Source: Candidatus Eremiobacteria bacterium
GTDB lineage: Bacteria; Vulcanimicrobiota; Vulcanimicrobiia; Vulcanimicrobiales; Vulcanimicrobiaceae
Assembly (NCBI GenBank): GCA_963737065.1
Contig: CAVTRC010000001.1
Location: 960,001 to 1,024,000, forward strand
DNA: 64,000 nucleotides
Reading direction: 5' to 3'
Position numbers and translations under genes: made by a program. Shown here piece after piece: positions 1,801 to 64,000 of the stretch (position 1 is the stretch's first letter; every line of letters begins with the position of its first letter). The notes below the pieces were generated by a model. It was given only the letters and a program-made list of their open reading frames with translations, was not told the origin of the DNA and made no database searches.

Positions 1801-2088
1801 ATGACTGATAGCTTTCGCACTGCGCCGCCCGAGGGCGAGTGGTCGCCGGGAAACACCGGCGCAAGCGGCTACCAAAGCGCTTTCGGCAACGGACCAGAGC
1901 GAGCGGATGAGGACGACAACGACGTAGGACGCGCGCTGCTCGTCGGTCTCCTCGGCGGGCTCGTGTCCGCGGCCGGGTACTTCGTCTACCGGCGCCTGCC
2001 CGATGAACAGAAGGAACGAATCCACGCGCAAGTACGATCGCAGCTGTCCGCGCGCCTCGCCGAAATTCGGCAGAACTTCAACATCTAA
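1801..2088 (+). CDS. Small single-TM hypothetical protein
   Basis: AGGAGG SD; one hydrophobic helix followed by a charged helical tail. Confidence 0.75.
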   Translation: MTDSFRTAPPEGEWSPGNTGASGYQSAFGNGPERADEDDNDVGRALLVGLLGGLVSAAGYFVYRRLPDEQKERIHAQVRSQLSARLAEIRQNFNI

Positions 2089-2132
2089 GGCCATACGTCT
2101 CGAATCGCGACTGCCGCGGCACTACTGAGTGC

Positions 2133-2615
2133 ATGCGGCAGTTTGCATTCATGGCGGCGCTCTACGCGCACGCGCTGCAGATTTTCAATCCGTCGCTTGC
2201 ATCGGATAACGCGCTGCGCTATGCGACCGCGACGATTCGCGAGGCCGATGCGCAAGCGCTCGACGCGCGTTTGCTGGTTGCATTGATCGCGGTCGAATCA
2301 TCGTGGCGAAGTGATGCGGTTTCGAACGCCGGTGCGCGCGGACTCGGACAATTGATGCCGCCGACGGCAAACGAACTCGGCGTCGATCCCGATGACGCGC
2401 TCGCAAACATTCACGGAGCTGCCGTGTATCTTCGCCGGCTGCTGCGTCACTACGCCGGAAGCAGCCGTGACGAGCAATATACCGACGCGCTCGCGGCCTA
2501 TAACGCCGGCGAGGGGGCAGTCGACCGGTACGGCGGCGTGCCGCCGTACGCCGAGACGCGCGCGTACGTTCGCCGCGTCATTTCGTTGTGGCGTCGTCTG
2601 GCGGGTGAGTCGTAG
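2133..2615 (+). CDS. Lytic transglycosylase (SLT domain)
   Basis: VES, AVSNAGARGLGQLMP, ALAAYNAG, PPYAETRAYV motifs. Confidence 0.93.
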   Translation: MRQFAFMAALYAHALQIFNPSLASDNALRYATATIREADAQALDARLLVALIAVESSWRSDAVSNAGARGLGQLMPPTANELGVDPDDALANIHGAAVYLRRLLRHYAGSSRDEQYTDALAAYNAGEGAVDRYGGVPPYAETRAYVRRVISLWRRLAGES

Positions 2616-2817
2616 ACGGCGACGGCGGCATCGGGGGCGGCATTTCGTGCTCGTTCGTGTCCGCAGCGCGCTCCATCTCGGCGATAAACGCATGCGATGT
2701 ATTCTGCACTTCACGCATCACGCGGCCCGCCTGGCGCATCATCTTCGGCAGCTGATCCGGCCCGAAGAGCAAGAGGGCGAGCACGGAAACCACCATGATG
2801 TCGGGGACGGAGAACAC
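2578..2817 (-). CDS. Twin-arginine translocase TatA/TatB family subunit
   Basis: Single TM, then LLFGPDQLP hinge and amphipathic helix. Confidence 0.85.
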   Translation of the reverse strand: MFSVPDIMVVSVLALLLFGPDQLPKMMRQAGRVMREVQNTSHAFIAEMERAADTNEHEMPPPMPPSPSTTHPPDDATTK

Positions 2818-2926
2818 GCAGTAGCTCTTCTATCACGTGCTCGGCGCCCCTGGGGCGCGCGGAGCGCGAAGCGCGTGGCTGAAGGGAGGGTATCCTCCTG
2901 CGCCTGTGCAAGCTTTCGCGTCCGCC

Positions 2927-3397
2927 GTGAAGATCATCTACACCCGGGGCAACCGTACGGAAACGCTTGCTTCGCTCGCGACGCTGCGCAAGATTCTCAA
3001 CCGGTTCGTCGCCCACCGCGTGTTCTACGAAGTCTCCAGCCGCAGCAAACGCGGTCACGAATTCTTTTCCGCGAAGAACGTCTTCGTGGTCGGATTGATT
3101 GAAGTCACGAATTACGAGCATTTGAAGATTCTGATCTTCGATGCGAACAATCAGGCGCATTCGATCGAGATTCTCAATCCGCAAACGATGCGGATCTACG
3201 ATGAGATGCCGGGTCGCGGATTCGCGGTATCCTTCATCAGCGAGAGCGAAAACGGCGTCGAAACGCGCTGCTACATTCGCGACGAAGGTGAAGATCAAAG
3301 CGGCATCAAGGAACAAACCGCGCTCGAAAAGATCACGCTTCCGCAACTGTTCGAATACCTCGAAGAGCTGACCGCCGTCGAAGCGTCAAAGACGTAA
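2927..3397 (+). CDS. Hypothetical cytoplasmic protein
   Basis: Globular-looking sequence with typical codon usage; GTG start at 2927 is a best guess (ORF open from 2837). Confidence 0.7.
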   Translation: MKIIYTRGNRTETLASLATLRKILNRFVAHRVFYEVSSRSKRGHEFFSAKNVFVVGLIEVTNYEHLKILIFDANNQAHSIEILNPQTMRIYDEMPGRGFAVSFISESENGVETRCYIRDEGEDQSGIKEQTALEKITLPQLFEYLEELTAVEASKT

Positions 3398-51505: not shown

Positions 51506-52000
51506 ATGAAATACGTCCCCGCGACCGCGTTCATGCAAGATTTATTCGGCGGCTCCGTTTCGCGAACGACGGTCGTGGAGCGGCTGTTCGCCGATTCGGA
51601 TATCGCGGCGATTGCCGCGGAACATGGGGTGGAGCGCGAGAACGTTTTAACCGCGCTCGCACGCGACGAATCGAGCGCCGCCGGCAGCCGGTTGCGCATA
51701 GCAGTGGAAGCAATGCGCCGCGGCTCAACGGAAGTACCGCGTGGAAATGCGTTTCCGAAGGATCTCAGCCGGGTCACGGACGGCGGCCTCGAACTCATCG
51801 GCCTCTTCGTCAACCCGCTCGCGACGACGTCAATGATCCTCAACGCCGCACCGCCCGCACTCGACGAAGCGGCGCGCGCTATCGACCCTCGCCTATCGCT
51901 TGCCGCATTCGCGTCGCGCGTCTTTCGCGTGCTCGCGGTCCAGCATCCGCCGCTCGCGCACGCGCTGACGAACGCGGCTAATGCACTGGAACGTGCTTAG
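51506..52000 (+). CDS. Hypothetical helical protein
   Basis: Fills the gap, typical codon usage; no family recognised. Confidence 0.6.
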   Translation: MKYVPATAFMQDLFGGSVSRTTVVERLFADSDIAAIAAEHGVERENVLTALARDESSAAGSRLRIAVEAMRRGSTEVPRGNAFPKDLSRVTDGGLELIGLFVNPLATTSMILNAAPPALDEAARAIDPRLSLAAFASRVFRVLAVQHPPLAHALTNAANALERA

Positions 52001-53217
52001 GCCAGGACGCTCAACTGCGAGAACGTCCCCGCGAGAATTTTTTGCGACGGGCGTCCGAGCCAACGCTCGAGCACGGTCGCATACACACTGCGGAAATCCG
52101 TCGTGAACGCGACGTTACCCATATTCGTCGTTTGCAGGTCGGGAAGCGAGCCGTAGACGCCGGCCTTTACACCGCCTCCGACGAGGAAGAGCGGCGATGC
52201 CTCACCATGATCCGTTCCACGGCTTCCGTTCTCGGCAATGCGACGCCCGAATTCACTGAACGTCATCGTCAGGACCCGATTGTCGTTGCCATGCGCCCGG
52301 AGATCGTCGTAAAACGCGTAGATCGCATCGGAAAACTCGCGTAAGAGGCGGTCTTGCGTACCTTTTTGACTCACGTGCGTATCGAAGGAACCGTGCTGCA
52401 CGTAGAGCACCCGCGTTCCGAGGTTGCTGCCGACGATCTGCGCCGCGAGCGCCAAACTTCTTCCAAGCGGCGTCGCCGGATACGATGCGTCGGTCTTATA
52501 GCCGGCGACGAGTTTCGGCAGCTCTTCGGACCCGCGTTGCGCATCGTCTTCGATTTGCGCGATATGCGCTAGATAGGGCGAGTCGAACGGAAACCTCTTG
52601 TCGCGAACAAGCTCGGCGTACGTCTTTCGCGCAATGTCGTTTCGATCGCTCACCAATCCATAGCCGTTCAGCTGTGCCACGGCGGGTACGTCAACCTTGT
52701 TCGATATTAGAGCTTCGGGAAGAACTTGCGCGAGCGCGAGACCGTTGAAAAGATTTTCTTGCGGAAGATTCGCTTCATCGAGATAGCGGCCGAGCCATCC
52801 GGTATGCTCGTAGCGATCGGGTATCGCCGTCTGCCAAATTTCCGTCGAGCGGAAATGTGAATGATCGGGATTGGGATATCCAACGCCTTGGACGATCGCC
52901 ATATCGCCCCGGTCGAAGAGCGCTTTGAGCGATTTCATCTCGGGATTGAATCCCAATTGCTCGTTGATTGCTAGAACGTCGCCGCGCGGGACCGCAAGCG
53001 TTGGACGCATCTGGTAGTACGCGTCGTTCCCGTGTGGAACGATGCAGTTCAGCCCGTCATTTCCACCTTGCAAATTGACGAGAACGAGAACGCGATTCTC
53101 TGCTCCCGGCAGTCCGGGCAGCGGAGTGTCCGCAAGCGCGCGTGCGAACACATGGTCCATGTTTGCAACAACCGCGAGCCCCGAGAGCGCGCCCAGTACG
53201 AACTTACCGCGTTTCAT
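51997..53217 (-). CDS. DUF1501 family protein
   Basis: LQGGNDGLN, YPNPDHSHFRS, FDTH, SEFGRR, GTDHG, DFRSVYA. Confidence 0.93.
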   Translation of the reverse strand: MKRGKFVLGALSGLAVVANMDHVFARALADTPLPGLPGAENRVLVLVNLQGGNDGLNCIVPHGNDAYYQMRPTLAVPRGDVLAINEQLGFNPEMKSLKALFDRGDMAIVQGVGYPNPDHSHFRSTEIWQTAIPDRYEHTGWLGRYLDEANLPQENLFNGLALAQVLPEALISNKVDVPAVAQLNGYGLVSDRNDIARKTYAELVRDKRFPFDSPYLAHIAQIEDDAQRGSEELPKLVAGYKTDASYPATPLGRSLALAAQIVGSNLGTRVLYVQHGSFDTHVSQKGTQDRLLREFSDAIYAFYDDLRAHGNDNRVLTMTFSEFGRRIAENGSRGTDHGEASPLFLVGGGVKAGVYGSLPDLQTTNMGNVAFTTDFRSVYATVLERWLGRPSQKILAGTFSQLSVLA

Positions 53218-53248
53218 GAATGTCTTATTTCGTCCTCTGATGTCTGGC

Positions 53249-54688
53249 CTAGGCTAACTGATAGGCGGGCATGGCCATCGCCAAGTATGCCGCACCGCGA
53301 ACGCGTTCTTGAAAGTTTTCGGCGCCGAGAGATTTGAGGGCAGAGGTGGAGACGCCGTTCAAATAGCCGAGCAGTTGCGTGCGCGCGATCTCGGGCGCAT
53401 CACCCTGCAAGAGAACTTCAATGAGCTCCAGGGACGCGCGGTTCGCGTCGACCGGGACCGCTTGCAACCACGACGATTCCGCCATCATCGGCGAATTGCT
53501 CAGTTGCGCGAGAAAGTTCTGTCGAGCGATGATCGTCTGCGATGTGATCCAATTCTGACCTCCGGGCCAACCGGCAACGTTGGGCGGATAAAACAGAATC
53601 TGACCCATTTGGTTGAGCGCACGCGGAGCGGCCGCGTCGATTTGCGAAAGCCCGAACGTCTGATGCGTTCCGACGACGAATTCGACGGGACTCTTTACGA
53701 GCGCGCGATACGCACGCCGCGAGAAAAAGACGTTACTTTGCAAGAGCGTTGACATCACGGGTGCAAGATTGAAATCGTACTTTCGGATCACGGCGGCCAG
53801 TCCATCGACGAGTTGCGGCTCTGGATCGTTGTAGACGAAATAATTAAGCAGCGTGTTGGCCCAAAACTTCGAAGCCGCGGGCTGTTGATAGATTATCGAA
53901 ACGATATCAGCGCCGTCGAAGTTCCCGGAGCGACCGAGGAACGTCTTGATTCCGCTGTCATGAATGCGCGGGTTGCTGACGAATTCGCCTGTTTGGCGGT
54001 TGATCGTCCACCCGGTGAAAGCTCGCGCAGACTGGCGGATGTCTTCTTCCGTGTAATTTCCGTGACCGAGCGTGAACAGTTCCATCAACTCACGCGCGTA
54101 GTTCTCATTCGGATGCGCCTTGTTGTTGCGCGCATTGTCCAAATACAGCAACATCCCGGGATCTTTGCTGACGGCAAGCGTCACGGCACGTAAATTGCCG
54201 AGCGCATTCTCGCGGAAGAGCTGATTTTGACCGTAGACGTACGTGGGCCACACGCCTTTTTGGATCGCGGCTGTTGTAAAGTGACCGTGAAAGAAGAACG
54301 TCATCTTCTCTTGCAGCGGTGCTGGCGTCGTGAGCATGCGATTGAGCCACCACATCTGCAGCGAGACGATCGACTGCCGCGAGTTCTTGCGAATCGTTTT
54401 CAGCGCGTCCATGCGCTGATCTTTAGGCAACCCCACGAGGTTCGCGATGTCGGGCTGGTAGAGGTCGGCGGGCGAAACGAGATTCGACGTGTCGGGGAAG
54501 TGCACGAGCGACTCCACGACGTCGTGCGGGCTGCTGCGTGTCGCGGCGGCGATCGCTTGCGGCGTGCCGCCGAATCCCGCACGGCGTAGCAAGTGCGCCG
54601 CGAGGCGCGAATCCCATTTCCCACCGTACGGAGCAAGCGCGGTTCGCGCATCGAGCGATCCTTCCGGACGATTGAATCCCGAGGCCAT
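53249..54688 (-). CDS. DUF1800 family protein
   Basis: [45 protein letters not shown]. Confidence 0.93.
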
Positions 54689-54767
54689 ACACTTATTGAA
54701 CGCATCCAGCGACCCGAGCGTCATGAAGGACGGGTTAGGGCCGAGGCTTGCCGAACGAGCGGCCTTC

Positions 54768-56351
54768 GTGAGCCTTCTGGAATCTCGCCTGGACCCGCAA
54801 AGCGAGGCATTTGCGCTGAATGCGCATCGAATGACGACCTTGGTTAGCGAATATCGCGAACGACTCGAAGCCGTTCGCGGGGGTGGTGGCCCGGAAGCAA
54901 CCACAAAGCATCGCAAGCGCGGGAAGCTGACCGCGCGGCAACGGATCGACGAGTTAATTGATCCGGACTCGGATTTCCTCGAGTTCTCGGCGCTCGCCGC
55001 ATACGAGATGTATAAGGGCGACTCGCCTTCTGCGGGAATCGTCACGGGAATCGGTTGCGTCGAAGGCCAGCATTGCGTCATCGTCGCGAACGACGCGACG
55101 GTCAAAGGCGGCACGTACTACCCGATGACCGTCAAAAAGCATTTGCGCGCACAGGAGATCGCAGAGCAAAATCATCTGCCCTGCATCTATCTCGTGGATT
55201 CGGGCGGCGCGTTTCTTCCGTTGCAAGCGGACGTTTTTCCGGATCGCGATCACTTCGGACGCATCTTCTACAATCAAGCGCGCATGTCGGGAAAACGTAT
55301 TCCGCAGATCGCCGCGGTGATGGGATCGTGCACCGCTGGCGGCGCCTACGTGCCGGCTATGAGCGATGAAACCGTCATCGTCAAAGGCACCGGAACGATC
55401 TTTCTCGGCGGTCCGCCGCTCGTGAAAGCAGCGACGGGCGAAGAAGTGACCGCGGAAGAGCTCGGCGGCGCGGACGTTCACACGCGCATTTCAGGTGTTG
55501 CGGATCACTTTGCGAACGACGATCCCCACGCGCTCGGAATTGTTCGCGAAATCGTGCGCAACTTGCATCGCGAGCTGCCGCGCCAGTGGGATCGTGAAGA
55601 ACCACGCCGGCCGAAATACGACCCCCGCGACATCTACGGGATCATTCCAGCAGACAGCCGCACGGGCTACGACGTACGCGAAATCGTCGCGCGTCTCGTG
55701 GACGGTTCGGAATTTCACGAATTCAAAGCGCGTTACGGCACGACGCTCGTGTGCGGGTTCGCGCATATCGAGGGCCATCCGATCGGCATCCTCGCGAACA
55801 ACGGGATTCTTTTTAGCGAAAGCGCGCTCAAGGGCGCGCACTTCATCGAACTGTGTGCGCAGCGCGGCACGCCGCTGCTGTTCTTGCAGAATATCACCGG
55901 CTTCATGGTCGGCAAGCAATATGAGAACGGCGGCATTGCAAAAGACGGAGCAAAACTCGTGACCGCCGTCGCGTGCGCGGAAGTGCCGAAGTTCACGGTC
56001 GTGATCGGCGGCAGTTTCGGTGCGGGCAATTACGGCATGTGCGGACGCGCCTACTCGCCGCGTCAGTTGTGGATGTGGCCGAACGCCCGCATCAGCGTGA
56101 TGGGCGGAGCGCAAGCAGCGAGCGTCTTATCGACCGTGAAGGGGGACATGACGTCCGAAGAAAAGGCCAAATTCGAAGCGCCGATTCTCGAAAAATACGA
56201 GCACGAAGGTAATCCGTACTATTCGACGGCGCGTCTTTGGGACGACGGCATCATCGACCCGCTCGACACGCGCCGGGTCCTCGCAATCGGGCTGGACGCT
56301 GCCGCGCATGCGCCGCAGCCGCCCACGCACTTCGGCATCTTCCGAATGTAG
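54768..56351 (+). CDS. liuB: Methylcrotonoyl-CoA carboxylase, carboxyltransferase (beta) subunit
   Basis: [51 protein letters not shown]. Confidence 0.93.
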
Positions 56352-56365
56352 CGCACAAACGGCGC

Positions 56366-58114
56366 TCATGCCGTGGACGTAGACGCTTTCAACGCCAGCT
56401 CGCGGCGGAGCGATTCCATTTCACGGCGCAGCTGCTCCGCTTCAACATGGTCGAAGGCCGCGCCGGCGGCGTTCACGACGCCTTCGATCGCGCGCATTTC
56501 GTCGCCGTCGAGATCGGCGCCGTTCGTATGTTCGCCGTAGAGCACGATCGCAATGACGCGGCGCCGCGCGAGCACCGGAATCGCGAGAACGGGCCGCGCA
56601 GTACCGCTGGGAAGACTGGAAACCGGCCATCGTATCTCCGAGACTCGCAATGCCGTTTGCTCGGCCTCGACGTGCATGACTAGCGCATCCTGCCGCGAGA
56701 GGATTGAGACGCATTCGGGATCCCAGCCGCACGCGCGTACGCGCGCCCATTCGCCGCTATCGTTCATCTGAAATACCGCCGCCGACCCCAAGCCCAGAAT
56801 AACGAATGGCTCGTCCACCAGGAACTCGTGAATGACGTCCACCCGCTCGGAATGAAGCACCGCACGCGCTGCCTTCTCCAACCGCCGCTGTGCAACGTAC
56901 CGGGCGCGGAACAGCAGACGATCCACGAAGATATCGGCGCGCTTATGCAGATGATCGAGCCAAATTCCGAGCGCAATCGCCGTTACGAATTGCGTGACCG
57001 CTCCAAGTTGCGTTGCCTCGAGCTTCTTGTTGAAGATCCAATCCAACAGTCCAAAAACCAAGATGATAGAGCCGGTGAGGACTGACACGACGACGGCGCG
57101 GCTCAGGACGAACGTGACGTCGACGACGCGGCTTCGCATGATCCCGTAGACGACGAGCACGACGGCGATGCTTTGGACGACATAAAATATTTCGGCGACG
57201 ACGTATGAATCGTAGAACGGTTTCGTACCCAGCCACCACAGAGCGAACGCAGCCGCGCACCAGACGCCGCCGCCAAAAAGCACCCACGCCATCCGGTGCC
57301 GATCTCGCCCGTCGGCAATCACATAGTTGCGAATCAGTGCTGCGAGCGCTGTCGCGACCGCCAGCACTCCGATCGTAAAGCTAACGGCTGTCATGTTCGG
57401 GGCAAGCATACCGAAAAACGCCCACGACCCGACGGTATAGAGCGAAACCGCGATTTGCGCCAGAAACAAGATGAACGCGAAGCGTTGTGCGGGGCGCATC
57501 CATGGTGCGATGCGATTGTTGGGAACGCGGCTCGCAAAGACGATGACGAATATCCACAACGCCTGCAGTGCACTGCAAAACATCTCGCCGCCGACTACCC
57601 ACCAATAGCCGAACGGCGAAAGGTACTCACATATCGGGTTACTGATATTCAGCCCGACGAGCACGGCGAACAAGCTCCACGTCATCGCGCTCGGACGCAC
57701 GATCACGAGCCAGGCTGCGATTGCTAGCGCAATAAGCGCGAAGATCGTGCTGATGAGCTGCTGGATACGATACAGCGATTCCAGACCGATCTCGCGGGTC
57801 GTTACAACTGCCGTCAAATGCCGCGTACCGCGAATCAGCGGTAGCTCCAGCTTCGTACCGGGCGGCGGAAATTTGTACACGACGGGATCGTAGAGCCGGC
57901 GCATGGGCCACAATCGGGCAGCATCGATGCGATCGCCGGGCTTGATGCCGGCGGCTTGCGCTGATCCATTCGGCAAGACGCTCGCAATTCGTAGACGCGA
58001 GTCGGGAGCAATCCCCAGGTGTCCGAGTGGATACCAAATCTCCAGGAGCGGACCGAATCCGAAAAGCGCAATCAGAACCAATGCGACAAACACCGCTATC
58101 GCGCGTCCTGACAT
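56366..58114 (-). CDS. Membrane receptor-like protein: PDZ - about 7-8 TMs - GAF - coiled coil, no output domain
   Basis: IASVLPNGSAQAAGIKPGDRI (PDZ); TM bundle; LAIPVL...IVLYGEHTNGADLD (GAF). Confidence 0.8.
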   Translation of the reverse strand: MSGRAIAVFVALVLIALFGFGPLLEIWYPLGHLGIAPDSRLRIASVLPNGSAQAAGIKPGDRIDAARLWPMRRLYDPVVYKFPPPGTKLELPLIRGTRHLTAVVTTREIGLESLYRIQQLISTIFALIALAIAAWLVIVRPSAMTWSLFAVLVGLNISNPICEYLSPFGYWWVVGGEMFCSALQALWIFVIVFASRVPNNRIAPWMRPAQRFAFILFLAQIAVSLYTVGSWAFFGMLAPNMTAVSFTIGVLAVATALAALIRNYVIADGRDRHRMAWVLFGGGVWCAAAFALWWLGTKPFYDSYVVAEIFYVVQSIAVVLVVYGIMRSRVVDVTFVLSRAVVVSVLTGSIILVFGLLDWIFNKKLEATQLGAVTQFVTAIALGIWLDHLHKRADIFVDRLLFRARYVAQRRLEKAARAVLHSERVDVIHEFLVDEPFVILGLGSAAVFQMNDSGEWARVRACGWDPECVSILSRQDALVMHVEAEQTALRVSEIRWPVSSLPSGTARPVLAIPVLARRRVIAIVLYGEHTNGADLDGDEMRAIEGVVNAAGAAFDHVEAEQLRREMESLRRELALKASTSTA

Positions 58115-58225
58115 TACAGGGCCCGGTCTTGAGTCGACGCCGGGATTGTTGTTTCCATCACCCTCGCAGTGCTATCGTTCGAATAGCGCCGCTCTTTCTT
58201 TGCTTGATATTCGGGAGGACAGCTC

Positions 58226-58618
58226 GTGGACAGAAATAACGGTTCGGTCGATGTGGCTCCCGACCCGATTGTACCAACCGCGAGGGCTTTAGTTGACTCA
58301 CCGGTTCTTCGCCTGTGGGGTTATGTCGGTGATTCACTGCGAAGCGGATACATACGGCTCTACGCCGACCTCTCATTCCAGTCATACTACGAGATTCAAA
58401 CGAGCGATGTCCTCGAACGCGTCCGCCTTGGCGACAGAGACGGAGCTTCGGGGTCTCTGTTGACAGTGAAATTCGATGCAATACTGCAAGCGATGGAAAG
58501 CGGACCGGTCGGCGCGGATTGGTTGGCCGGCACAGTGACGGCCGAGAATCTACGCGGGGCAGGCCATGGGCCTCGCGCGTTGGGCCAGCCCCCGACCACG
58601 AAGACGAAATCGCGATAG
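58226..58618 (+). CDS. Putative RiPP precursor with a large folded leader domain and Thr/Ser-rich C-terminal core
   Basis: GGGAGG SD; LWGYVGDS...RLYADL...YYEI leader-like domain, ADWLAGTV motif, tail GQPPTTKTKSR; directly upstream of the kinase and lyase. Confidence 0.62.
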   Translation: MDRNNGSVDVAPDPIVPTARALVDSPVLRLWGYVGDSLRSGYIRLYADLSFQSYYEIQTSDVLERVRLGDRDGASGSLLTVKFDAILQAMESGPVGADWLAGTVTAENLRGAGHGPRALGQPPTTKTKSR

Positions 58619-58636
58619 ACGGCCGCTCTCTCTCCA

Positions 58637-59695
58637 ATGGACGCCAAGTCGGCGGTTCAATGCCTCACGCGCTTCGGTGTTTTCGACGGTTGCCTTCCAG
58701 ACCACATCACGGTAACGTCCGCGAGCGGGCGCAACGATAACACGCTCGTACGTTGCGATGGGCGCGCCGCGTACCTGATCAAAGCCGCGTATCCGGCCGA
58801 CCCGGCTGCAGAGAGCGCACTCAAACGAGAGGCCGACTTCTGTGCCTTCTGCGCGGAGCATAGCCGCGCGCTCGACCTCGACGACCTCATACCGCGACTT
58901 GCGGCTATGGACGCGAATCGAAGCGTCTATGTCTACGACGTATTCCAGTCGGCTCTTCCACTTTCGTCAAGGTACGACAATCTGCCCGTTTGGTATAAAG
59001 TTGGCGTGAAACTCGCCGTACTTCAGCGCCGCTGCTCCGAGTTGGTGACCGGTGATTGCGCGCTCGGGCTATCGTCGGAACCTCCATCAATTCTGTCGAT
59101 GCACCGTCCGACGCCGCAGGATGTTTCGGAATTGACTGCGGCAACATGGGATCTGCTCTCGATCGTGCAGCGGCGCCCCGAATTTTGCGAACATCTCGAC
59201 GGCATTCGCGATACATGGACGGCGACAACGTTCACTCATGGCGATATTCGGGCCGCAAACGTGCTCATATCCAAGGCGCTCGATGAGCCACGCGTGCATT
59301 TCGTCGATTTCGAAACTGCCGCCTTCGGAGATCCCGCATGGGACGTCGCCGGTGCGCTCCAAGACATCGCCTTTGCCTGGATTCAATCGATGACCGCAAA
59401 TCCGGACCTCGCGCAGATGATCCGCTCCGCAAGGCGGCCCTTCGCTCAGCTTCAGTCGACGGCGCGTGCGCTCGTACGCGGATATCTTCACGCAAACGAC
59501 GCTACGAGTAGCGAGCGCGACGAGTTCATCGAGCGTGCTACGTGTTTCTCCGCGGCACGGCTGCTTCAATCGGCGTACGAATGTACGGCTGAGCTGGACG
59601 GCTTGCCCGCGCACGCAGTGCTTCTGCTCCAGCTCGCGGAAAATATCGCGGCCAATCCGCGACGCGCTGCGGAAGGCCTTTATGGAATCGCCTGA
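58637..59695 (+). CDS. APH-family phosphotransferase (LanK/TvaC-like kinase)
   Basis: GRNDN, YLIK, HGDIRAANVL, FVDFE, GDPAWDVAG. Confidence 0.87.
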   Translation: MDAKSAVQCLTRFGVFDGCLPDHITVTSASGRNDNTLVRCDGRAAYLIKAAYPADPAAESALKREADFCAFCAEHSRALDLDDLIPRLAAMDANRSVYVYDVFQSALPLSSRYDNLPVWYKVGVKLAVLQRRCSELVTGDCALGLSSEPPSILSMHRPTPQDVSELTAATWDLLSIVQRRPEFCEHLDGIRDTWTATTFTHGDIRAANVLISKALDEPRVHFVDFETAAFGDPAWDVAGALQDIAFAWIQSMTANPDLAQMIRSARRPFAQLQSTARALVRGYLHANDATSSERDEFIERATCFSAARLLQSAYECTAELDGLPAHAVLLLQLAENIAANPRRAAEGLYGIA

Positions 59696-60557
59696 CGTGC
59701 GCGCGATCGCCCACGATCGAACGTTGAAGCCGGGCAGCGACGACATCGCTGCGATCCTCTATGAAAGGGCCTACTGCCGCCTGCGGAATCCGTACGCCGC
59801 ACGGTCCTCACCGGACGAAAGGCCGCGCTTCATCGCCGAACTTTCGCTCGCGAATCGCGGAACCGGCCACCGGCAGACGGGTTGGACGCTCCTCGACACG
59901 GATGGCGATCGTTGCGTCGTTGCGAAAAACGGCGTGCGCTTTTATGCGAACCGGGGCGATGTGCGCACAACCGCGCAGAACGCATGTCGTGTTCGCATCG
60001 AAAAGGAGATGCGAGCGCTGATTCCGGGCTTCTATTGCGCCATCGGCGACGCAGACGGCAGCGACGATCCCGACGTCCCAATGTTGCGCCTCTACTGGAA
60101 TTTGCAGGCCGGCGCAGCAACGAAATACATCGCACTAATTACTGGCCAATGTAATCGCCTAGGCCTACCGTTCCGTACGAAAGTTCTCGCCGACCCAACA
60201 GCCTACCGGCGCGCCGATGCCGGTGTACTATACATAGAGCGAACCGACGCAGCAGCGTTCGCTTCAACGGTCCGCGACGTTTACACAGAAATTGCACCGC
60301 TTCTGCACCACGACGTTCCGATGTTTACCAAACGCATCGCTCCCGGTCTCGCATGGGCCGAAGATCCGGGCGGCGCGCGGAGTTTCGGCGAAACACGCTG
60401 TAGCGCAATCGCCGATGGATTGATCGCAGCCGGCGACTCGGCAAATGAAAACGAGCGCTATCGGCTTATGTGCGACGCGCTCGAGAACGCGCGCATCGAC
60501 ATACGCGAACCGTATCTGTGCGGCGGCCGCAGTGCCGCGTACGCGTGCTTTTTCTAG
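59682..60557 (+). CDS. HopA1-like protein (LanY/TvaD-like phospho-lyase)
   Basis: PGFY, RLYWNL, PFRTKVL, RADAGVLY, PMFTKRIAPGLAWAEDP, SFGETRC; overlaps the kinase gene. Confidence 0.85.
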   Translation: MESPDVRAIAHDRTLKPGSDDIAAILYERAYCRLRNPYAARSSPDERPRFIAELSLANRGTGHRQTGWTLLDTDGDRCVVAKNGVRFYANRGDVRTTAQNACRVRIEKEMRALIPGFYCAIGDADGSDDPDVPMLRLYWNLQAGAATKYIALITGQCNRLGLPFRTKVLADPTAYRRADAGVLYIERTDAAAFASTVRDVYTEIAPLLHHDVPMFTKRIAPGLAWAEDPGGARSFGETRCSAIADGLIAAGDSANENERYRLMCDALENARIDIREPYLCGGRSAAYACFF

Positions 60558-61267
60558 ATCTGCGGAAACGCCTTGGGATACAGCTTGTAGTAGTTTGGCG
60601 TTTCCAGCCACTTGCCGTTCGCATACTTCAGCGTTGCAGAAGCCTTCGGTTTGGTCGGGCAGCACAACGGCGCGTTTGCGCTGTAGTACGGTCCGCTCAA
60701 CAGTAACGACGCGCCATCACCGTTTTTGACGAGCTTCGCGTCGAGGTCGCAGGCGTTCTGTACGGTGACCGCCGGCACGACCTTATTGCTCTTCGGATCG
60801 AACGTGAAAACGGTCAGGCCGGCCATCCCGCAATCGGCACCGGTTTGATGCGTCTGCACGACGAGCTGCTCGGCGGCATCGCCCATCAGCGGCGCGGCGC
60901 CCACGATACCGGCGGTTTGACGCGGGAACCATATGCTCGCGCCGCTGGCCTTCGAAAGTTTGTCGAGCGGGCCGCCGTCGCGTGGCGATTGATAGCGCAA
61001 GCGATACGTGGTGTTATCGAGTTGATAGATCGAGACGTACCATTGATAGAACGTCTCACCGCTCCCCGTACCAACGGCCTTTTTACTGATGACGCCGCGC
61101 CATTGAGCGTGCATCGCTTCACCGGCCAAGTATGCCAGTTGACTTGCGACGACAGTTCCCGGCGGCGCGGGCGCAAATGTGACGTGCGCCGGCTCTTCCG
61201 CGGCAAGAGGCTGCGAAACGAACAGGGTGAATGCGGCGATCATTATCGCGCGCGTGAATCGATGCAT
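60554..61267 (-). CDS. Secreted protein with an LppP/LprE-like C-terminal CCP motif
   Basis: GGAG SD, signal peptide, APLCCPT...LKYANGKW. Confidence 0.7.
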   Translation of the reverse strand: MHRFTRAIMIAAFTLFVSQPLAAEEPAHVTFAPAPPGTVVASQLAYLAGEAMHAQWRGVISKKAVGTGSGETFYQWYVSIYQLDNTTYRLRYQSPRDGGPLDKLSKASGASIWFPRQTAGIVGAAPLMGDAAEQLVVQTHQTGADCGMAGLTVFTFDPKSNKVVPAVTVQNACDLDAKLVKNGDGASLLLSGPYYSANAPLCCPTKPKASATLKYANGKWLETPNYYKLYPKAFPQI

Positions 61268-61346
61268 GTTAGCTTCTCCACTCCCAAGTAACGCGTGTGT
61301 AGAGCGTGGAGGAAACGCATTCCTGCGGATGATTACCGTGGACCGG

Positions 61347-62087
61347 CTAAATTCCGGCGTACCATTCGTATCCCTGATCTTCCCAATACCCGCCGGCTCC
61401 CGAATAAATAGTCGCGAACGAACCGACGAGTTCGATTCGCTCGATCCACTTGGCGCTTTTATACCCGAGTTGCGTCGGGATGCGCAAGCGAACCGGCGCG
61501 CCGTGGTCGGGGTCGAGCGGCGCATCGTTCAATCGTAGTGCCAGCAACGTCTGCGGATGCATCGCTTGATGAAGATCGAGGCTCTCGTAGTAGTGCACAT
61601 TCTGATCGTCTCTATCCATGCAATAAAACACGACGTACCGCGCATCCGCGCGCGGATGAACGGCGGCGAGAAAATCGCGTAAGCGCACGCCGCTCCATTT
61701 ACCGATGACGCTCCATCCCTCGACGCAGTCATGGCGCGTTATTTGCGTCGTCTGCTTCATCGCGTGTAATTCTCCGAGCGAGAACGTCCGTCGCCGTTCC
61801 ACGGCGCCGTCGACGATCAGCCGGTACGGTTCGAACCGGTGCGCGACGAGTTGCTCGTAATGCGAATCGCTCGGCGTAGGCAAGCCATTTACGCGAAAGT
61901 TGCGATCGACGTCTTTGTCAGTGTACTCCCGTGCCATGCCGTGCGTACCGATCAGCGCGTGATTGAGCTTTTCCGCCGAGTCGAGAACGGAGTGGAATTT
62001 CGGGTTGTTATTCAACGCGGTCGCGACCGGCGAACAGGCGGTAAGCGCGGACGAAACCGACGCCGCGATGAAAAGGCGGCGGTTCAC
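61347..62087 (-). CDS. Molybdopterin-dependent oxidoreductase (sulfite oxidase/MsrP-like), Tat lipoprotein
   Basis: NRRLFI Tat motif, LTAC, HDCVEGWS, HGAPVRL, LGYKSAKW, GYWEDQGY. Confidence 0.92.
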   Translation of the reverse strand: MNRRLFIAASVSSALTACSPVATALNNNPKFHSVLDSAEKLNHALIGTHGMAREYTDKDVDRNFRVNGLPTPSDSHYEQLVAHRFEPYRLIVDGAVERRRTFSLGELHAMKQTTQITRHDCVEGWSVIGKWSGVRLRDFLAAVHPRADARYVVFYCMDRDDQNVHYYESLDLHQAMHPQTLLALRLNDAPLDPDHGAPVRLRIPTQLGYKSAKWIERIELVGSFATIYSGAGGYWEDQGYEWYAGI

Positions 62088-62887
62088 GGTCCCACCCCGT
62101 CTTCTTTGCCCAAACGATACCATCCGGTGATCATCGAGTTCATTTGATTGGTGACGCCTTGCGTGAGTACTTGAAACATGTGAATCGCAAAAAACGCGAG
62201 TAGCGCCAGCATCCCCGCGAAGTGCCAAAGCCGCGCGAATTGCCGTCCGCCGAAGAACCACGTGAGCGGTTGCGCGACCGCGTCGATGCCGGGTGAGAGC
62301 GCGAGACCCGTAAGGACAACCAGCGGAGCTACAACGAATCCGATCGCCGTATAAGAAGCCTTCTGCAGCGGATTGTACACACCGTGCGGCGGCGCTTCTT
62401 TGCGCAGATGGAAATAATAGGCTTGCATCGGCCAGAGTTTCGGCACGTCGCTCGGGCGCAAGATCATCTCTCGCAAATTCCCTTTGATGGCCGACGAGAT
62501 CAACCATGCTACCCAGCACGCCGCGGCTATCCAAGCGAAGAACAGATGCCACCGCCGGCCGTCGGCGAGAGCCTGATACGATGGAATGGTGATCCAGCCG
62601 GGAAACGCGCGCGCGCCGCGGCTGCCCATGCCGTCGTCGGTGTAGCCGAGCCAGCCGGTCGTCGTGACCGTGTGGCCGAAAATGGTCGCCGTCCCGACGC
62701 CTTGCGCGGGAGAAGCGATGGAGACCACCCGCCGCGCGGGATTCGATTTGTCCGATGCATCGAGATACGGCGCGGCGTTGAAAATCTGCAGTCCGCTCGA
62801 CACCAGCACGCCGAACGCAATCGCCCAAAGCCAGTGGCTTAGCCGCGTCGTAACCGCGTACCGATAAATCGTGCGTCCCATCTGCAT
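62084..62887 (-). CDS. Cytochrome b/b6-domain membrane partner of the Mo enzyme
   Basis: RLSHW, SGLQIFNA, RRWHLFFAW, YNPLQK, ARLWHF, IH heme ligands. Confidence 0.9.
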   Translation of the reverse strand: MQMGRTIYRYAVTTRLSHWLWAIAFGVLVSSGLQIFNAAPYLDASDKSNPARRVVSIASPAQGVGTATIFGHTVTTTGWLGYTDDGMGSRGARAFPGWITIPSYQALADGRRWHLFFAWIAAACWVAWLISSAIKGNLREMILRPSDVPKLWPMQAYYFHLRKEAPPHGVYNPLQKASYTAIGFVVAPLVVLTGLALSPGIDAVAQPLTWFFGGRQFARLWHFAGMLALLAFFAIHMFQVLTQGVTNQMNSMITGWYRLGKEDGVGP

Positions 62888-62943
62888 ACAAATATAACGC
62901 AGGCCAGGCACGAGCGGATGATAAGCCGAACGACACCGGGCCC

Positions 62944-63720
62944 ATGTCTACAGTGACGGTGTCCATACAAGCGCACGTAGCGCGCGTCACGCTCGCGCGG
63001 CCGGATGTTCGGAACGCATTCAACGCCGAAGTGATTCGCGAACTTCGCGACGGGTTCGCGCAGCTCGCGGACGATCCCGAGGTACGCGCCATCGTCCTTG
63101 CCGGCGAGGGCCCGTCCTTCTGCGGCGGAGCCGACATCAACTGGATGCGCGGTGCGCTCGACTTGAGTTACGACGAGAACCTTGCCGATGCCGAAGCGAT
63201 GAGTTTGATGTTTCGCGCGATCGATCGTTGCGCGAAACCCGTCATTGGGCGCATTCATGGTGCGGCGCTCGGCGGAGGCTCCGGACTCACGGCCGTCTGC
63301 GACATTGCGATTGCAAGCGACGACGCGCTTTTCGGGTTCACCGAAGTGAAACTCGGGATCATTCCGGCGGTGATTTCACCGTTTGTACTGGCGAAGATCG
63401 GTCCGTCGCACGCGCGCGCGTTATTTGTGACCGGCGAACGCTTCGACGCCGAGCGCGCCCGGCACATCGGGCTCGTGCATCGCGTCGTTCCGATCGACCG
63501 CCTTGACGCGGCAATCGACGAAACGCTCGCGCAACTCATGACGAGCGCCCCGCAAGCAGTCGCGGCCGCGAAAGCGCTGATTCCACGCGTGATGACCGCG
63601 TCGTACGATGAGACGCTCGGCATCACGAGCAGCGCGATCGCCCGTCAGCGAACGTTGCCCGAAGGACAAGAAGGCCTGCGCGCATTCCTCGAACGCCGGA
63701 AAGCGGCGTTCGCGCAATGA
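62944..63720 (+). CDS. liuC: Enoyl-CoA hydratase (methylglutaconyl-CoA hydratase-like)
   Basis: [51 protein letters not shown]. Confidence 0.88.
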
Positions 63721-64000
63721 TTCAGCGTCTGCTGATCGCCAACCGCGGCGAGATCGCCGTCCGGGTTGCGCGGGGTGCGCGCGAAATGGGAATCGCGCCG
63801 CTCGGCATCTATTCGGACGCGGACGCAAACGCATATCATCTCACCGTAATGGACGATGCGCGCTGCGTCGGTCCCGCACCGGCGACCCAATCGTATCTCG
63901 ACATCGACGCAATCATTGCCGCAGCAATCAGCATGAACGCCGACGCCGTGCATCCCGGTTACGGCTTTCTTTCCGAACGTGCGGCGTTCGCGAAAGCAGT
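63717..64000 (+). CDS. liuD: Biotin carboxylase subunit (methylcrotonoyl-CoA carboxylase alpha), partial
   Basis: [16 protein letters not shown]...SYLD...[15 protein letters not shown] overlap with liuC; runs off the window. Confidence 0.88.

Follow-up and report, generated by a model that had tools for sequence, protein, structure and literature searches.

The subject of our analysis was a three-gene operon in a stretch of 64,000 nucleotides (nt), referred to here as the window, from contig CAVTRC010000001.1 of a Candidatus Eremiobacteria bacterium (assembly GCA_963737065.1). The operon encodes a protein of 130 amino acids (aa), an APH-fold kinase and a HopA1-like lyase, and comparison of its genes with those of its relatives suggests that it is best explained as a reduced, LanC-independent descendant of a widespread system in which a precursor, a LanK-type kinase, a LanY-type lyase and a LanC protein are encoded together. 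On balance we favor the view that the kinase and the lyase install dehydrobutyrine (Dhb) and dehydroalanine (Dha) on the C-terminal tail of the 130-aa protein, which would give a linear dehydro product without thioethers. Throughout the text, G000 is the genome with the window operon, G001 to G003, G005 and G006 are genomes of the same genus, L numbers are loci and P numbers are proteins of the leader family described below.

The three open reading frames (ORFs) lie head-to-tail on the + strand and are tightly packed. The ORF of the 130-aa protein (58226-58618) starts with GTG, has a Shine-Dalgarno site (GGGAGGA) 6 to 7 nt before this codon and matches the leader-family profile. The kinase ORF (58637-59695, 352 aa) begins 18 nt past it. 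The reading frame of the HopA1-like protein spans 59466-60557 in its longest form, and the protein likely starts at the ATG at 59682 (59682-60557, 291 aa), which gives a 14-nt overlap with the kinase stop as in G003. Because the internal junctions consist of these 18 nt and the overlap, and the operon is bounded by a divergent gene for a membrane protein and a convergent gene for a secreted protein, there is no space for extra genes within it. Scans for promoters and terminators in the locus yielded no more than shuffled controls. Many long overlapping ORFs appear on both strands, which is the usual by-product of a G+C content of 60%.

The kinase matches the Pfam APH family (4.9e-9) and carries the motifs HGDIRAAN and VDFE. 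It also matches, over its full length, the NCBIfam model of LxmK, a class V lanthionine synthetase subunit, at 1.8e-17 and 63 bits, where the curated equivalog cut-off is 315. The HopA1-like protein matches Pfam PF17914 (1.2e-37). With profiles built from 28 kinase sequences and 11 lyase sequences, the top solved relatives were LxmK (9dk1_A, 5.1e-19) and LxmY (9dk1_B, 1.7e-19), respectively. The kinase residues K49, E65, H201, D203, N208 and D224 are present and are invariant in 28 of 28 aligned kinases, and the lyase residues R136, K167, R177 and Y184, with a spacing of 31/10/7, are invariant in 11 of 11 aligned lyases. The catalytic residues of CaoY are R187, K219, R229 and Y236, with a spacing of 32/10/7, and in the portion of PMC9486802 consulted, mutagenesis shows the importance of the first three for phosphate elimination; the correspondence between these residues and those of the window lyase was drawn from the spacing and from the alignment with LxmY, and not from a direct alignment with CaoY. 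By homology, these two enzymes make up an intact pair of the LanK/LanY type, related to the class V dehydratase. An earlier note on this DNA, made from the sequence alone, had proposed such a pair, and the best matches of both profiles to the LxmK/LxmY complex 9dk1 agree with it. The three packed genes that it described, with the motifs HGDIRAAN, DFE and ADWLAGTV and a tail of three Thr, one Ser and no Cys, were all found at their positions in the window.

The 130-aa protein begins with an N-terminal segment (residues 1-26) that carries the family motif VDxxPDPIV. A beta-domain (27-91) comes next, then a helix (97-109) that contains ADWLAGTV and a disordered tail (110-130). The tail, GAGHGPRALGQPPTTKTKSR, has three Thr, one Ser and no Cys and ends in PPTTKTKSR. 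The AlphaFold2 model of the protein has a mean predicted local distance difference test (pLDDT) of 77.5; a six-stranded beta-domain is confidently modeled at 27-91 (block pLDDT of 86-96), two short helices including ADWLAGTV fall at 97-109, and the tail is of low confidence. A Foldseek search with the leader model gave no PDB match at E<=1e-3, and VIA-align gave a top Z of 3.6 to Hfq/SH3-like small barrels, from which no fold was assigned. A look-up in the ESM Atlas stayed below the recognition mark, and the automatic 'pyrophosphatase' names that it returned have no Pfam support and were disregarded.

Searches of Pfam and NCBIfam with the 130-aa protein gave no match, and a word-index protein search found only the protein itself and its G003 ortholog. 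An exhaustive profile search showed that its first ~110 residues match 369 cluster representatives (E<=1e-3). Among the 150 best matches, the members of this leader family are 113 to 519 aa long, and of 60 aligned members none matches either Pfam or NCBIfam. The statistics on tails were collected from 151 sequences, namely the 150 best of the 369 matches and the window's own protein. The leader domain begins at residue 60 or earlier in 150 of the 151, and 148 carry tails of 15 aa or more. Of these 148 tails, 137 contain at least two Cys and seven a single one; the four without any belong to P0143, P0150, the window protein and its G003 ortholog. The median family tail is 72 aa long, with 8% Cys and 15% Ser plus Thr, and many tails consist of tandem Cys/Thr-rich units, as multi-core precursors do, with up to about 40 Cys. 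The tail of the window protein, computed as the part beyond the leader domain, is 25 aa long with four Ser/Thr and no Cys. In the 60-member alignment G32 and G35 are invariant and R44, Y46 and G102 nearly so, and the 130-aa protein carries the family motifs G.(Y/F)VG...(V/I)R(L/I)Y and A.(F/W)L.G.I. No second gene of the leader family was found in G000, which gave one match. We conclude that the 130-aa protein is of the precursor type with a large leader and is likely the substrate. The earlier note had seen it as a large-leader precursor with a substrate tail free of Cys; the family of 369 representatives, with tails fused to the leader as cores, bears out the first point, and the second holds for the entire protein, which has no Cys at all, and for its G003 ortholog.

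To compare gene order across the family, we scanned for loci with the lyase alignment, keeping one genome per species, and scored the ORFs of each locus with profiles of the collected sequences. The 80 loci obtained come from Chloroflexota, Planctomycetota, Acidobacteriota, Bacteroidota, Pseudomonadota, Actinomycetota, Myxococcota, Gemmatimonadota, Dormibacterota and a Nitrososphaeraceae archaeon. A kinase is present in 77 of the 80, and a LanC homolog directly follows the lyase in 72, 21 of which have the two fused in a single ORF. An ORF with the leader domain (E<=1e-10) stands immediately upstream of the kinase, on the same strand, in 33 of these 80 loci, the set as a whole covering more than 10 phyla. 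Eight loci are without LanC: four (L054, L086, L106 and L110) end at contig ends within about 1 kb of the lyase, L099 is visibly disrupted, its lyase being split and its kinase missing, L105 and L114 form a divergent pair from Cytophagales that sits in a different gene context, and the last, L036, is from the window's own genus. In a sister genus of the same family, g25, LanC adjoins the lyase (Pfam matches of 2.4e-39 to 5.9e-55) and the precursor tails are Cys-rich and 250-350 aa long. The common parent arrangement thus appears to be a large-leader precursor followed by LanK, LanY/HopA1 and LanC, with cores that are rich in Cys, Ser and Thr and often repeated.

Several of the loci differ from this arrangement or add to it. 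L018 (G147:C22:22000-41999), from the sister genus, holds two full precursor-kinase-HopA1-LanC clusters in tandem, and the same genome has a third HopA1-kinase-LanC locus elsewhere, beside which no leader-domain ORF was detected. The cluster of L020 (G162:C13) adjoins a gene for an 874-aa protein with Pkinase and LanC domains, similar to class III/IV synthetases. L033 (G396:C3:1477122-1480412), from another genus of the same family as the window's, has a leader-domain ORF of 166 aa (1462-1962) with two Cys near its end, followed by a LanC-like ORF (2035-3291); neither a kinase nor a HopA1 gene lies between the two, and no HopA1 was found in this genome, which is 69% complete. From this locus, the leader domain may serve other types of synthetase as well. 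In three Planctomycetota loci (L038, L042 and L049), leader-domain ORFs with short tails of zero or one Cys stand beside intact HopA1-LanC genes, and in the first two the kinase is apparently split into two ORFs; these loci may be cases of independent core reduction or of decay.

The window's genus, which belongs to the phylum Vulcanimicrobiota, presents the form of the system that lacks LanC and, in two species, Cys. Neither G000 nor G003 has a match to LanC (PF05147) in its whole genome, which bears out the absence of a cyclase noted earlier. In G005, the sole LanC gene is on another contig (L027, G005:C13:26288-30277) beside a large LanB-like dehydratase gene; it belongs to a separate class I lanthipeptide cluster that is unrelated to the operon, and might in principle work in trans on the precursor of G005, which contains Cys. 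A search with a four-member leader alignment gave a single match, L132, a contiguous metagenome contig of the G005 type that encodes the membrane protein, a 145-aa precursor, the kinase, the lyase and a convergent unrelated gene, with no LanC. The window subtype was found in no other genus among the 78 genera searched in the family.

In a maximum likelihood tree of 80 lyase domains, the three sequences of the genus form one clade (support of 100% in the Shimodaira-Hasegawa-like approximate likelihood ratio test, SH-aLRT), nested within a group of 29 rows (support 83, internally unresolved) in which LanC follows the lyase in all other members. Because the genus lyases are nested among relatives that are followed by LanC, the loss of LanC is the derived state. 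The lyases of g25 form a separate clade of 25 rows in the same tree, and we therefore rejected the idea that the operon was shared vertically with this sister genus. The tails point the same way: three PP[S/T]T units, with Cys kept, are present in G005 and in the metagenomic protein P0003, and a single unit without Cys in G000 and G003. The four members of the subfamily all end in PPTT[K/R], while the rest of their tails diverge. The idea of a stripped-down minimal system put forward in the earlier note therefore holds in that cyclase and Cys are both lacking, and does not hold as a free-standing invention, because the operon is a derived offshoot of a widespread family with LanC and Cys-containing cores.

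Recognition of the 130-aa protein by the kinase was addressed with a two-chain complex prediction, for which an alignment of kinases and one of leaders were supplied. Its interaction prediction score from aligned errors (ipSAE) was 0.84, 0.84 and 0.83, and the best of three controls reached 0.00; the runs share at least 57% of their contacts, with a partner pLDDT of 70 or more. The predicted interface places residues 93-113 of the 130-aa protein, with the ADWLAGTV helix and G102, on residues 249-270 and 322-348 of the kinase, in its C-terminal lobe, while the beta-domain and the tail lie outside the confident interface. According to a review (PMC12141560, consulted in part), an AlphaFold 3 model places the LxmA leader on the C-lobe of LxmK, so docking of the leader helix on this lobe would be the mode typical of the family. 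The ADWLAGTV helix is thus the predicted kinase-binding element.

From these results we propose the following mechanism. The 130-aa protein would be the substrate, its conserved amphipathic ADWLAGTV helix (97-109) docking onto the C-terminal lobe of the kinase, which would then phosphorylate Thr and Ser residues of the tail (T124, T125, T127 and S129 in QPPTTKTKSR). Elimination of the phosphate by the HopA1-like lyase, whose translation is coupled to that of the kinase and which is presumably bound to it, would then leave Dhb or Dha, and the end product would be a linear tail or peptide bearing dehydro amino acids. Since the tail has no Cys and the genome no LanC, no (methyl)lanthionine ring can form. 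A bolder form of this proposal, which we offer only tentatively, is that selection has kept the LanK/LanY pair after the loss of thioethers in order to place ring-free Dhb/Dha on the disordered PPTT[K/R] tail of a small protein with a beta-barrel fold, the electrophile acting in the cell or on the PDZ/7TM/GAF protein encoded next to the operon, and that the ~110-aa domain defines a large undescribed class of multi-core precursors in more than 10 phyla, including an archaeon.

Another possibility is that the tail is dehydrated and that Dhb/Dha then reacts without LanC, to form a lysinoalanine-like adduct with Lys, to add an external thiol or Cys, or to cleave the chain by hydrolysis, and that the role of the product might be in signaling to the PDZ/GAF membrane protein. 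The two Lys and one Arg that flank the Thr and Ser residues in PPTTKTKSR are consistent with this, as is the co-inheritance of the 582-aa membrane protein in a four-gene module that replaces an EamA-like gene. Against it, the genes nearby include no enzyme for a step of this kind, the membrane-protein family is multi-copy (up to 11 matches per genome) with no homolog in the other 80 loci or the sister-genus loci, and the scheme is purely inferential. We think it unlikely. We give less credence still to the 130-aa protein being an adaptor, regulator or decoy that binds the kinase through its leader helix. The true target of the pair would then be some other protein, dehydrated or irreversibly dephosphorylated in trans much as kinases are by lyases of the OspF/HopAI1 type. 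In favor of this, the complex prediction confidently places helix 93-113, and not the tail, on the kinase, the tail with its 25 aa is unusually short when the family median is 72, and lyases of the HopA1 and OspF families target folded proteins according to the part of PMC9486802 consulted. However, every other member examined carries an obvious core behind the leader domain, no second leader-family gene was found in G000 (one match), and the Thr-rich PPTT[K/R] end is conserved amid variable surroundings.

When G000 is compared with G003, the ratio of nonsynonymous to synonymous substitution rates (dN/dS, Nei-Gojobori) comes to 0.15 in the small ORF, 0.35 in the kinase gene and 0.16 in the lyase gene; the gene of the adjacent membrane protein has a value of 0.12, and five housekeeping genes on the flanks have values of 0.02-0.12. 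The operon ORFs are intact in three species (G000, G003 and G005/L132). We regard it as very improbable that the operon is a decaying remnant which, after the loss of LanC and of the Cys core, yields nothing useful but is not yet disabled by mutations, for although LanC is found in 72 of the 80 relative loci and at least two Cys in 137 of the 148 relative tails, the tails of the genus shrink from three PP[S/T]T units and two Cys (G005) to one unit and no Cys (G000 and G003), the module is missing from some genomes of the genus and the kinase exceeds the flanking genes in dN/dS, the three ORFs remain intact in three species, the dN/dS of the operon (0.15-0.35) is far under 1 over a dS of 0.38-0.58, every family-invariant catalytic residue is retained, the PPTT[K/R] end is conserved and the 14-nt overlap of kinase and lyase is retained in G003. 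The window form appears to be reduced yet not decayed, and under purifying selection. The decayed remnant that had been raised earlier as an alternative is thus not supported, and the same applies to the argument that close relatives with LanC and a Cys-containing core would show this copy to be degenerate: such relatives do exist, but given the operon's intact ORFs, purifying selection, kept catalytic residues and conserved PPTT[K/R] end, the conclusion of degeneracy is not supported. In the same comparison, dS is lower in the four module genes (0.36-0.58) than in the five flanking genes (0.75-1.47), which hints at a more recent exchange between the G000 and G003 lineages or at differing codon constraints.

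A number of points weigh against a maintained dehydration system that acts on the tail. The tail has no confident placement in the kinase active site of the complex model. Of 157 solved complexes, 116 came up to the ipSAE mark, as did 2 of 215 mismatched pairs, counts that are only approximate here because the alignments fed to the prediction were custom-built, and part of the score may reflect family likeness because a homologous LxmKY structure exists. The operon occurs in three of the seven genus genomes (G000, G003 and G005) and is missing from four, so the module is dispensable, and the kinase, with its dN/dS of 0.35, is the least constrained of the three genes. The G005 tail has two Cys and that of P0003 one (computed tail) or two (aligned tail); the Cys-free state is thus seen in just two close species, where it could stem from a recent loss that is heading to decay. 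No RNA sequencing run is listed as containing the locus, and two soil DNA runs contain only small shares of it. Finally, neither flanking gene is recognizable by Pfam as a protease or an exporter, and with neither evident, a released peptide product is not supported.

To judge from the translations, the part of the window from 52000 to 64000 is presumably a neighborhood of leucine catabolism that the module interrupts, with a putative carboxyltransferase at 54489-56351, a putative enoyl-CoA hydratase at 62944-63720 and a putative biotin carboxylase from 63717. The four module genes are the operon and the gene for a 582-aa membrane protein (56366-58114, - strand), which is divergent from the operon and has weak matches to PDZ and GAF_3. 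Beginning with one N-terminal transmembrane (TM) segment, this protein continues with a PDZ-like region and then about seven TM segments, and its C-terminus is GAF-like. Its ortholog in G003 (91% identity) is found solely beside the operon, and it is adjacent to the operon in G005 and L132 as well, while the other genus genomes have just paralogs of ~30% identity, in a family of up to 11 matches per genome; none of the 80 other loci and none of the sister-genus loci holds a homolog. The membrane protein is thus co-inherited with the operon as a four-gene module. We considered it as the missing leader protease and rejected this, as it has no HExxH or Ser-protease motif and its likeness to RseP is confined to the PDZ region. 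The secreted protein on the other flank has no Pfam match. As the earlier note had observed, no LanC, HFCD decarboxylase, recognizable protease or exporter is adjacent. In G000 and G003 the module lies between the gene for the methylcrotonyl-CoA carboxylase beta subunit and the conserved secreted-protein gene. In G001, G002 and G006 (L129, L130 and L131) the same slot holds a gene for an EamA/DMT-like transporter of ~290 aa, with no significant tblastn match to a remnant of the module. Because the EamA-like gene occupies exactly the site of the module, a replacement is indicated rather than a simple insertion.

To our knowledge, kinase/HopA1 dehydratases have been known solely as the first half of ring-forming pathways to peptides that ribosomes make and that are modified after translation (RiPPs). 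If a version that is conserved under selection, is free of Cys and has no cyclase is real, dehydration of Ser and Thr alone can be an end point on a protein-sized substrate, and the operon would be a minimal three-gene system for placing dehydro amino acids on a defined tag, consisting of the helix and the PPTT tail. The ~110-aa leader-domain family, with its 369 representatives, is uncurated and marks the precursors of HopA1-LanC clusters that are themselves uncharacterized, and this result may matter more to RiPP researchers than the reduced copy in the window.

Among known systems, the operon resembles by its gene content the dehydration half of class V lanthipeptide and thioamitide biosynthesis, and it falls outside the definition of a lanthipeptide since it has neither Cys nor cyclization machinery. 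Like the class V LanK/LanY pairs (LxmK/LxmY of lexapeptide and CaoK/CaoY of cacaoidin; 9dk1), it has an APH-fold kinase and a HopA1-like lyase side by side, the catalytic Arg/Lys/Arg/Tyr pattern in the lyase and a leader predicted to bind the C-lobe of the kinase. Unlike them, its kinase scores 63 bits where the LxmK equivalog requires 315, its leader is a folded domain of ~110 aa where that of class V is a short peptide, and its core has no Cys, so that (methyl)lanthionine or aminovinylcysteine (AviCys), the cross-link that defines the class, cannot be formed. Also unlike class V, the operon has next to it neither an HFCD decarboxylase nor a LanX-type cyclase, a reductase or any other tailoring gene, a statement that covers the operon and its flanks and not a genome-wide search for HFCD or LanX. 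With the thioamitide pair TvaC/TvaD (TsaC/TsaD) it shares the dehydration of Ser/Thr by two enzymes, as described in the parts of PMC8153245 and PMC9486802 consulted, and it differs in that Pfam finds no YcaO/TfuA, HFCD or other thioamitide genes adjoining it, in having no Cys for AviCys and in the type of its precursor. The fold family of its lyase is also that of HopA1 of Pseudomonas syringae and of the phosphothreonine lyases OspF and SpvC, and the HopA1 structure 4rsx weakly matches the lyase profile (1.1e-4); unlike these effectors, the window lyase stands outside a secretion-system context and is coupled to a kinase and a precursor-type protein.

The closest setting is that of the HopA1-LanC clusters. 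In the sections of Eyles et al. 2021 (PMC8153245) consulted, 1,340 HopA1 proteins are reported, of which 96% have a phosphotransferase next to them and 20% lie close to LanC or are fused with it; the latter are uncharacterized. Peptide mining in that work was directed at short peptides, and in PMC9486802 at peptides under 110 aa, to go by the same partial view of both papers, and filters of this kind would overlook large-leader precursors. No earlier description of precursors with a ~110-aa leader came up in the literature searched, outside which lie subscription papers and the supplements of PMC8153245 with families 11/20 and 22; these supplements may show some large-leader peptides. It is to the HopA1-LanC clusters that the window lyase belongs, nested as it is among lyases followed by LanC, and the window protein shares their leader domain, while LanC has been lost in the window's clade and, in G000 and G003, all Cys as well.

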